Assembly (NCBI GenBank): GCA_965276975.1
Contig: CBDIBR010000009.1
Span: 53,938-117,937, forward strand
DNA: 64,000 nt
Direction: 5' to 3'
DNA from: Rhodopila sp.
GTDB taxonomy: Bacteria > Pseudomonadota > Alphaproteobacteria > Acetobacterales > Acetobacteraceae
Shown: positions 30,608-42,471 of the stretch, one piece after another
Position numbering within the stretch: position 1 is the stretch's first letter
Layout of the letters: each line of letters starts with the position of its first letter
The notes under the pieces: model-generated
Told to the model about the DNA's origin: nothing
Seen by the model: the letters and a program-made list of their open reading frames with translations, nothing else
Database searches by the model: none
Made by a program: the position numbers and the translations under genes

Positions 30608-31744
30608 CTAAGCTCGATCGGACGCCAGGTCGGGCCAATACCGTGCGAGGACGGATGTGGCGATGACAGCTTGCACTGCGTCCTGATCCTCCGCCGTCAT
30701 GGTGTGGCGCCAGCGGTCCGGGACAAACTCGGAGGCTCGGAAGACATCAAAATAGCCGAACGGTCCGTCGTGCTGGGTGCTGACGCCAAGGAACGCCGCG
30801 GTCTGCGGGTGCCAGTCGAGGCCGGCGAAGGCAAACAACTCCTTAGAGGCCGGTTCCGGCTGACGGCAAAGATCTTCGTAGAGGACGATCCTGGCGTTGG
30901 GCAACGCGGCGAGTGCGGCGACCGCCGGTTCGTTGAACGCGCGCCAGCCCCAGGCATATTTGGCAGCGTCCGGCAACGCGTCGAACGCGGCGGCATCGAT
31001 GCCCTGACGACCGGCGGTGGCGATCGCGGCCGCTATGGCTTCACGTGTTTCGGATCGGGCGAAGCTGTGCTTGGACCGATCGGCGGCCGGTCCTGTGCTT
31101 TGTCGGGTCGCCAGCCCGGCCATCACCGATGCGATCTGGCCGCATGGGTGGCGCAGGATAAACACACACCGCGCGTTCGGCATTGTCCTGGCCGCGAGGG
31201 TTCCGTCCCAGTTCACCAACTTGAGCAGGCCACGGACCGATTTCTGTCGGGTCGGCGCCACCAGATCGGGGACACCGATCGGTGCGGCCAGGCGCGACAG
31301 GGTCGGCAGGCGTTGTGCGATGGCCAGTGCGACCACGAAGCCTCGGCGGATATTCTCCAACGGCGGCGGGCGCCAGGATTTACGGAAGTAGGGACGCTTG
31401 GCGGCGGCGCGCAAGCCGCGCTGCCGCAGCCACTGACCGATCTGTTCGGCTGGATCGAGTCCGGACGTCGCCAGGACCAATTCATCTGGCTCATGTCGGT
31501 ATAAAGTCTCCGGATGGCTGTCAAATATCTTGGCCAGCCAAGTTGTTCCAGAGCGTGGCGAGCCGAGCACAAGTATAGCCGAGTCGGCGATGCGCTGCCA
31601 TCTGCTGCCACGCGGCCGCGCGGCTTCCTGCCTAAAGCCGATCTGGGGGGGAGAAACCTCCGTTTGCGCCTGAAACATGCCGAGCATGATTAGCTTCTGC
31701 TCCATCGGGAAGGAATACGCTTTGTCTTTGCGTGGACCAGACAA
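30608..31744 (-). CDS. Sulfotransferase family protein
   Basis: 5'-PSB motif LGSPRSGTTWL, RHEP, LRHPCGQIAS and YEDLCRQP. The true start may be downstream. Confidence 0.85.
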   Translation of the reverse strand: MSGPRKDKAYSFPMEQKLIMLGMFQAQTEVSPPQIGFRQEAARPRGSRWQRIADSAILVLGSPRSGTTWLAKIFDSHPETLYRHEPDELVLATSGLDPAEQIGQWLRQRGLRAAAKRPYFRKSWRPPPLENIRRGFVVALAIAQRLPTLSRLAAPIGVPDLVAPTRQKSVRGLLKLVNWDGTLAARTMPNARCVFILRHPCGQIASVMAGLATRQSTGPAADRSKHSFARSETREAIAAAIATAGRQGIDAAAFDALPDAAKYAWGWRAFNEPAVAALAALPNARIVLYEDLCRQPEPASKELFAFAGLDWHPQTAAFLGVSTQHDGPFGYFDVFRASEFVPDRWRHTMTAEDQDAVQAVIATSVLARYWPDLASDRA

Positions 31745-31895
31745 ATCCGGCTATACGCCGCCACCTGATGATGGGCAATTCAGCCTTTGTATCGAAGTGT
31801 GAAATCAGCCCCCCATACAACACGATAGATTGAGCTTGCCCAAAAAGATGTTTATCGATTTTGACCGAACCAATTTCGATTTCGGCCAGGATCGC

Positions 31896-31998
31896 GCATC
31901 AGAGAAACGCGATCTGTTGCTGTTTGTCTGAAGTAGCCGATTTGCGCGGCGAAACGCGGCCGCTTCGCGTCTCGCGGTTCTCTACGATCGGGTACTAG
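31896..31998. repeat. Structured dispersed repeat (family B), copy 1
   Basis: Shares GCTGTT.GTCTGAAGT.GCCGA...CGGCGAAACGCGGCCGCTTCGCGTCTC...CTCT.CGATCGGG.ACT.G with 42370-42471. Confidence 0.85.
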
Positions 31999-32194
31999 TC
32001 GTTCGTCGAGTTTCATTAGGACGGTTCTTCGCGCGATGCGGCAGCCGACAAACATCCATACAGTTCGATCATTGTGCGCCGGCGTCGTCATGCTCCCCGG
32101 TGCAGGTAAGCTGTGACGTAGGTAAGCTTCCCGCGGCGATCGGCAACCGCAGGATGCCGTGAACGACATGCCGTATTGCCAGGCTACAAGTTGC

Positions 32195-32993
32195 TATTAT
32201 CCTGTCCCGCAAATACCAACTAGGAACGACCACTGGCTTGGATGCGGGGAGACTTGCTTTGGGACGGCCGATCAAGCGACTGCATGCGGAGCCCGGCGCC
32301 GTCAAAGAGCTTGAACGCCGATCGCGCTCGGCAACGGTCGACGTACGGGATCGCGAGCGTGCCGACATCATCCTGCTTCGGCTCGACGGGGTCGGGGTTG
32401 AAGCCGTCGCCACGCAGCTGAAAACGACGTCCAAGCGCGTCTCGACCTGGTCGAGGCGGTTCGAAGTGTCCGGCCTTAATGGGCTGGCGGACAGGCCGGG
32501 TCGCGGTCGCAAGGCTTCGATCCTCAGCCAGTTGACCGGCAAGCTGATCACCCGCACCGAGGCGACCCTCACCCATGTTGAAGGGCTCCGTTTCCTCAAG
32601 CAGATCGACCGTGAAACGCCACGCGACGTCGACCTGCATCTGATCGCGGACAACGACGCCACGCACAAACACCCCACCGTGCGGGCATGGCTGGCGAAGC
32701 AGCCTCGCTTGCACATGCATCTCACGCCGACCTCGTCCTCGTGGCTCAATCTGGCCGAACGCTTTTTCGCCGACCTGACCGGCGATGTCGTCCGGGCTGG
32801 CAGCTTCACGTCGGTCAACGAACTGGTCCGTGACATCAAAGCCTACCTTGCCGTGCGCAATGCCGATGCGAAGCCATCCCTGTGGAGAGCCGCGGGCGCC
32901 GAGATCCTCGCCAAAATCAAACGGGCACGCGTCGCGCTTACCGCAGCCGCAGCCGCGTGAGTTCTTGGTCAGCAATTCAGAAACGGCACACTA
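32195..32993 (+). mobile_element. Internally deleted IS630-family element (transposase remnant 32238-32960)
   Basis: An N-terminal HTH region (RVSTWSRRF...DRPGRGRK) joins directly to the late DDE part (DLHLIADN, HKHP, TPTSSSWLNLAERFF). The right end reads GAAACGGCACACTAG. The left end is approximate, with only a weak inverted-repeat match. Confidence 0.85.
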
Positions 32994-42369: not shown

Positions 42370-42471
42370 CTAGTATTGGGCATCAGACGCCGCTGTTCGT
42401 CTGAAGTCGCCGACGCACACGGCGAAACGCGGCCGCTTCGCGTCTCCCGCTGCTCTGCGATCGGGGACTGG
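42370..42471. repeat. Structured dispersed repeat (family B), copy 2
   Basis: Homologous to 31896-31998, including the identical 27-mer CGGCGAAACGCGGCCGCTTCGCGTCTC. Confidence 0.85.

Follow-up and report, generated by a model that had tools for sequence, protein, structure and literature searches.

A dispersed 107-bp repeat with a hammerhead-like core in a Rhodopila genome is very probably a non-autonomous IS630-type MITE

Introduction

The RUP element of S. pneumoniae is 107 bp long, is present in about 108 copies, targets TA and has ends like those of IS630-Spn1 (Delihas 2008, PMC2229807). IS630-Spn1 has been proposed as its mobiliser, and RUP often lands beside or within IS elements (PMC2229807). 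The Correia or NEMIS elements of Neisseria are MITEs of ~100-155 bp with 24-bp inverted repeats, a terminal TA and a target duplication, and their transcripts are predicted to fold (PMC2229807). For IS630 of Shigella sonnei, Table 1 of PMC2577343 gives, after Tenzen and Ohtsubo 1991, insertion at the TA within 5'-CTAG-3' with a 2-bp duplication. A MITE with a longer duplication is MITEPsy1 of Pseudomonas syringae, which inserts at CTAG or YTAA and duplicates 4 nt (PMC3189936).

Here we describe a dispersed repeat, family B, of which two copies lie in the window, the 64,000-nucleotide stretch of Rhodopila DNA that was analysed. An earlier note on this DNA had read copy 1 as a variant or decayed hammerhead ribozyme, with an IS630-related MITE as the fallback. 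The inverted repeats, the duplication of TA and the empty sites in related genomes support the fallback: copy 1 is very probably a non-autonomous IS630-type MITE, most likely one that would be moved in trans by an IS630-family transposase. The coordinates of the features are collected in Table 1.

Table 1. Positions of family B copies, their parts and neighbours in the window, and empty sites in other genomes of the genus
Feature	Position	Strand	Description
MITE family B, copy 1	31889..31995	+	107 bp, GGATCGCGCATCAG...CGATCGGGTAC; full 111-position model matched
Left flanking dinucleotide	31887..31888		CA in copy 1, decayed form of the duplicated TA
Left terminal inverted repeat	31889..31916	+	family consensus GTATCGCGCAT-CAGAGAAGCGCGATACG
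Hammerhead-like core CTGAAG...GAAA...GTC	31928..31971	+	lies in the interior of the MITE; no conservation across family B
Right terminal inverted repeat	31968..31995	+	reverse complement in copy 1 is GTACCCGATCG-TAGAGAACCGCGAGACG
Right flanking TA, target-site duplication	31996..31997		within CTAG (31995-31998); flank logo, empty sites
Internally deleted IS630-family insertion sequence	32197..32991	+	795 bp vs ~1,135 bp for the full element; TA at 32195-96 and 32992-93
MITE family B, copy 2	42373..42468	+	nhmmer 72.7 bits; alignment of 93 copies
Empty site	C10:3963283		vs L031 (G047); target CTAA, overlap exactly TA
Empty site	C4:46947		vs L065 (G047); overlap exactly TA
Empty site	C10:2197683		vs L067 (G047); overlap exactly TA
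Empty site	C10:4191064		vs L034 and L038, two other species (G049, G011); overlap exactly TA

Results

Extent, copy number and distribution of the repeat

The window is part of an assembly (G000) of 5.30 Mb in 10 contigs, with 64% G+C; loci outside the window are given as contig and position in G000 unless another genome is named. The earlier note had placed a dispersed repeat at 31896-31998. A dispersed repeat is indeed present there, but this span misses 7 nt of the left end of the unit (Table 1). Copy 1 scores 104.7 bits with nhmmer and 115.3 bits with covariance model R1, and it occupies model columns 1-111 (window 31887-31997, the element together with its flanking dinucleotides). As had been claimed, it ends in CTAG. 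That the repeat is dispersed is confirmed by 109 matches in G000 with BLAST and 137 with iterated nhmmer, 93 of them near full length, which is far above chance. The unit of 107 bp lies below the <300 bp limit for MITEs, is without an ORF and exists in many dispersed copies. Copy 2 lacks 11 nt of its left inverted repeat, at model columns 17-27, and has cTA as its left and TG as its right flank; the congener G013 is without an element at this site.

The median pairwise identity among family B copies is 0.74 and the copies are, judged by sequence, old. In a search of the genus with a covariance model made from 34 gapless copies, family B was present in 32 of 77 genomes; 49 was the highest count that this search could give for any one genome, so that counts of 49 are lower bounds. 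The family was absent from 16 sampled genomes of other families of the class in a DNA search. A 26-nt degenerate exact pattern run against species-representative genomes matched the sister genome alone and is little informative on the spread. The patchy distribution inside one genus is as expected of a mobile element.

Two further arrangements of family B were noted. Several contigs of the congener G067 gave repeated covariance-model scores among many family B hits (for example 123.8 in two hits, and 118.5 and 115.1 in three hits each), and these equal scores suggest identical copies and a recent burst in that genome. At C10:4001485-4001812 three copies stand head to tail, with a single TA common to neighbours.

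Ends and target preference

The terminal inverted repeats of family B are imperfect and ~28 bp long, with columns 3-30 pairing with columns 82-109. Within them lies a core in which columns 14-26 are complementary at 13 of 13 positions to columns 86-98 in the consensus, and this 13-nt core coincides exactly with what the earlier note had called "stem I". In reverse complement the consensus right repeat reads GTAYCCGATCG-CAGAGAAGCGCGAGACG, to be compared with the left consensus of Table 1. The outermost 16 nt of the two ends match at 9 of 16 positions, and the well-matched part of the inverted repeat is subterminal.

To define the borders, the raw flanks of the 93 copies were lined up on fixed internal anchors. 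Conservation reaches C-T-A/G on the left and C/T-A-G on the right (the slash marks the element border) and falls to background within one base. The left TA is preceded by C in 75 of the 93 copies, the first element base is G in 81, the last element base is C in 74, and G follows the right TA in 69; the T and the A of the left flank are each the majority base, in 57/93. Across G000, CTAG occurs at 0.52 per kb against 3.3 expected, a six-fold under-representation, and only 3.3% of TA dinucleotides are within CTAG. Because CTAG is rare genome-wide, the CTAG flanks are not an effect of base composition. Family B prefers TA inside CTAG, the hallmark of IS630.

Empty sites in related genomes

The joined flanks of 24 copies were compared with the other genomes of the genus, among them the close sister genome G047, in which flank identity to G000 reaches 100%. 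In four cases (Table 1) the alignments of the left and right flanks to the empty site have precisely the two bases TA in common, where G000 has TA-element-TA. The flanks at the three G047 empty sites are 89-95% identical to G000. At C10:4191064 the single TA of G049 and G011 is part of the TAG stop codon of the upstream gene, and in G047 this site is occupied by a 100% identical element. A single TA is also found at the empty sites C3:3244 (L066, L070) and C10:1638339 (L036). Conserved terminal inverted repeats together with TA duplications, the combination that the earlier note had said would make the repeat a MITE, are therefore both present, as seen in the flank logo and at the empty sites.

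Some candidate empty sites were set aside. L033 (G047) was rejected as the element is present there and the BLAST row across the junction is misleading, and for C10:1372077 (vs L032) and C10:4048104 (vs L068) the intergenic sequence is too diverged to place the junction.

Other short repeats use similar targets. At C10:1638339-1638445 a TA in the stop codon of the upstream gene carries family B in G000 and is empty in G012 and G008; the same target in G047 (C3:1749428-1749529, L041:229-330) holds another TA-flanked repeat of ~100 bp, GAGCATTTTCAG...GATCATGCTC, which suggests that two families inserted independently at one target. A third family of short repeats, ~140 bp long, has perfect inverted repeats GCAGCCTGTCGGACTTA with flanks cTA...TAg and about 31 copies (62 termini) in G000, among them C3:19562-19704, C4:109996-110137, C10:227669 and C10:314821; none is in the window. 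Its ends often adjoin family B at a shared TA, and the close similarity of its printed copies suggests recent IS630-type activity in G000. In the right flank of the family B copy at C4:140059-140165 there is a further repeat of ~120 bp, GTGTTGCGATGCGAACGG...GGTCGGACCAC/TAG, with more than 20 copies in G047.

IS630-family elements and the likeness of their ends

The earlier note had pointed to an IS630 remnant about 200 bp from the repeat, and an internally deleted IS630-family element does start 199 bp downstream of copy 1 (Table 1). Its ORF at 32238-32960 carries Pfam DDE_3 and HTH domains. By tblastn and alignment this insertion sequence has six genomic copies, four of them full length, and the reading frame is uninterrupted in those at C4:12131-13207 and C10:229530-230606. 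The 360-aa product of the uninterrupted element, counted from the first ATG, scores 246 bits on the NCBIfam model NF033545 for IS630 family transposases (cut-off 100). These insertion sequences are flanked by TA in (C/A)TAG, and family B adjoins the right end of two of the copies, with the TA shared at C4:12092 and T alone left at C10:2696533.

We compared the ends of family B with those of IS630-type elements in G000 and in its congeners. The first 17 nt of the MITE left end agree at 14 of 17 positions with an end of an IS630-type element, degenerate and frame-broken, at C10:116513-117713. The sequence GTACC..ATCGC..GAAGCGCGAG is common to the MITE right end and the left end, GTACCCACTATCGCTGAAGCGCGAG, of a 1,124-bp IS630-family insertion sequence that is intact and present in at least five copies each in the congeners G003 and G091, with a protein of 355 aa in the G003 type; this type is absent from G000. 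The ends of the uninterrupted IS630-family copies in G000 are less like those of the MITE. When the terminal 16-18 nt were searched in G000 outside the known copies, no insertion sequence with identical ends was found, and the only matches were to C10:116513 (degenerate), C10:971590-972500 (truncated) and C10:3331057 (a short solo end). The best end match within the genome is C10:116513-117713, and the closest intact insertion sequence is found in other species of the genus. The lack of an identical-ended insertion sequence in G000 and the modest agreement between the outermost bases of the two MITE ends weigh against the IS630-type reading.

Two observations concern the IS630-family copies themselves. 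The element in the window and a second one at C10:4307014-4307733 have the same ~340-bp internal deletion at different loci; from this common deletion it seems that the 795-bp derivative itself moved in trans, as an intermediate between insertion sequence and MITE. The full-length copies at C10:2695397-2696461 and C10:2322956-2324056 both carry a TAG in frame (gaaaagcTAGtgcc) in place of the gaaaagcCAAtgtc of the uninterrupted copies, and this divides their transposase into parts of 216 aa and 181 aa.

For the movement of family B we propose that a candidate IS630-family (Tc1/mariner-type DDE) transposase, most likely supplied in trans, would bind both inverted repeats, cut out the element and integrate it at a TA, preferably that of 5'-CTAG-3', with duplication of the TA. 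With G as its first and C as its last base, the element would regenerate CTAG on both sides, and a TAG stop codon would stay intact after insertion.

Gene context

Gene calls came from a crude ORF filter based on GC3, with 71% of the genome covered, and the figures for gene context are accordingly approximate. By this measure 118 of the 137 family B copies lie outside predicted genes (p=3e-43 against the 71% coding fraction). Orientation relative to the neighbouring genes is unbiased, with 43, 34, 31 and 27 copies over the four classes, which argues against an RNA role tied to one strand. In about 14 of the 137 copies the insertion coincides exactly with the stop codon of an adjacent gene, for example at C10:4191064, C10:1047105 and C10:2655287.

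Alternative explanations

The hammerhead reading takes copy 1 as a variant or decayed type I ribozyme on a dispersed repeat, whose transcript would cleave itself 3' of the GUC at 31971. Hammerheads carried on repeats are familiar from eukaryotic retrozymes and satellite DNAs, and the letters cited for this reading are indeed in place. The order CUGANG, 4-bp stem, GAAA, 5-bp stem and GUC is confirmed in copy 1, with CTGAAG at 31928-31933, GCCG and CGGC at 31936-39 and 31947-50, GAAA at 31951-54, ACGCG and CGCGT at 31954-58 and 31966-70, and GTC at 31969-71. The upstream strand AGAGAAACGCGA (31901-12) does pair at 11 of 12 positions with TCGCGGTTCTCT (31972-83); the spacer from this upstream strand to CTGA is 15 nt and not the 19 nt given before. 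Copy 1 is one of 19 among the 93 copies in which CTGANG, GAAA and GTC follow the hammerhead order and are separated by short stems. However, the family does not conserve the core: CTGANG is found in 30 of 93 copies, GAAA in 25, both in 19 and the canonical CUGANGA in none, and the C of CUGA is T in 47. The search with the Rfam hammerhead models that the earlier note had proposed gave no match; with Rfam 15, neither a hammerhead nor any other ribozyme was matched in the window at the gathering score, in 31700-32200 at E<=10, or in 20 copies with 1.5-kb flanks at E<=10. Nor do the stems covary across copies better than shuffled alignments. In the 34-copy alignment 17 copies cannot form the stem II pair 51-63 and 23 cannot form the stem III pair 68-84, the three helices pair in 76.6% of cells against 75.7% after shuffling, and their covariation score of 0.099 compares with 0.094 for shuffles, 121 of 500 of which scored as high. 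The 15 nt between "stem I" and the core and the random orientation to genes also speak against a ribozyme, variant or decayed, and we regard this reading as highly improbable. The hammerhead-like features are by-products of the palindromic build of the MITE, in which "stems II and III" are GC-rich internal palindromes. A separate idea, compatible with an IS630-type MITE, is that the internal palindromes are also kept as nucleic-acid structure, either as an RNA hairpin module for the stability or termination of neighbouring transcripts or as a single-stranded DNA hairpin in transposition. Copy 1 has a left-end hairpin, GATCGCG/CGCGATC, which the earlier note had overlooked, and transcripts of bacterial MITEs have been reported to form long stem-loops (PMC2229807). 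The palindrome set 3-11:21-29, 47-56:100-109, 57-63:79-85 and 69-73:86-90 pairs in 85.8% of cells against 82.8% after shuffling, and shows 47 double-sided changes against 23 expected (for both, 0 of 500 shuffles as high). These figures are driven by three pairs with compensatory changes between subfamilies (49-107 AU/GC, 63-79 CG/GU and 71-88 CG/UA), which a pure transposon reading does not need, and several G-U pairs would be C-A mismatches on the opposite strand. Yet the three pairs split only two or three subfamilies and may thus stand for no more than about three events, and relatedness by itself, with no structure at all, can lift a set of sequences above all its shuffles. The RNAalifold consensus of the 34 gapless copies is weak (-6.7 kcal/mol), the single-sequence fold of copy 1 is no more stable than shuffles (z -1.07 on the + strand, -1.84 on the - strand), two of the four helices could form together only in a pseudoknot, and the unbiased orientation to genes counts here as well. 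Selection for a defined fold of left-end hairpin, long-range stem and two inner pseudoknot helices, in which the long-range stem may close the right two-thirds of the element, is therefore a tentative suggestion that we consider unlikely.

Other routes of mobility have also to be weighed against an IS630-type MITE. The CTAG at both family B ends would equally suit a MITE derived from an IS5-family element with a duplication of 3-4 bp (CTAG, YTAA or TNA), as in MITEPsy1. The two can be told apart at targets other than CTAG. At the CTAA target, cccccTAAgcc has become cccccTA[G...T]TAAgcc, with TA alone duplicated, and in all 3 TA-flanked copies with a -3 base other than C the last element base remains C. 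In view of the CTAA case and this uncoupling of the -3 base from the last element base, a 2-bp duplication is favoured over one of 3-4 bp. The insertion sequences that neighbour family B, and those with similar ends, moreover belong to the IS630 family, and an IS5 origin is very unlikely. Least likely of all the readings is a REP or REPIN-type element spread by a RAYT, an IS200/IS605-like tyrosine transposase. It is prompted by the GTAG at the head of the internal palindrome GTAGCCGATCG...CGATCGGGTAC, as a palindrome preceded by GTAG resembles REP sequences. The spread of REP and REPIN sequences is not known to leave a target-site duplication, and this reading is contradicted by the TA duplications at several pairs of empty and filled sites; the 107-bp unit with its distinct IS630-like ends does not fit it either. 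The reading as hammerhead ribozyme is held to be less probable than the IS5 origin and somewhat more so than the REP-type element.

The permissive Rfam scans returned only weak, chance-level matches, to SraB, raiA and miRNA families. One of these, to raiA RNA at window 30792-30985 (L001:433-626), scored 26 bits where the gathering score is 101 (E=0.018); its span falls within a minus-strand ORF of 378 aa, and the match is most likely due to chance.

Discussion

A plausible ribozyme motif is here explained by the palindromic build of a transposon, and the motif is not one to be followed as a ribozyme. A full-text literature search for Rhodopila together with MITE gave nothing relevant, and family B appears not to have been described before; as an IS630-type MITE it would be ordinary. 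With it, the few bacterial MITEs for which filled and empty sites support the duplication of TA and a link to IS630 gain a member from a GC-rich alphaproteobacterium. With family B and at least two other CTAG/TA-flanked families in G000, these genomes are heavily colonised by IS630-type MITEs. Recognition of such elements should be of use in annotation, with fewer false calls of sRNAs and ribozymes and with an explanation for variation in intergenic length, and the elements could serve as insertion-polymorphism markers among close relatives. The regeneration of a stop codon upon insertion at TAG is perhaps of wider interest. Should the unlikely case of a selected fold be true, the ~137 copies would be structured RNA or single-stranded DNA modules that influence the ends or stability of neighbouring transcripts, or the fold would be needed for transposition.

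The order CUGANG, stem, GAAA, stem and GUC in copy 1 is like that of type I hammerheads (Rfam RF00163 and relatives), whereas the core in family B is neither canonical nor conserved and comes without model match or covariation. With IS630 and the IS630/Tc1/mariner superfamily, family B has in common the TA within CTAG and the 2-bp duplication; it differs in having no transposase gene, and would need a transposase in trans. Similar to the Correia or NEMIS elements, it has many copies, long inverted repeats and a duplication of TA, although the sequences are unrelated, and the IHF site, the promoter-like ends and the RNase III substrates are features of the Correia elements' own. By analogy RUP is the closest counterpart of family B, with the Correia elements next. 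The sequence of RUP is unrelated and its inverted repeats are listed as 9 bp, as opposed to ~28 bp in family B, which is further set apart by its GC-rich alphaproteobacterial host, its strong preference for CTAG and ends that match no insertion sequence of G000 exactly. What the two share is a length of 107 bp, some 100 copies, an intergenic location, inverted repeats with some likeness to IS630-family ends, insertion at TA and a place beside insertion sequences.
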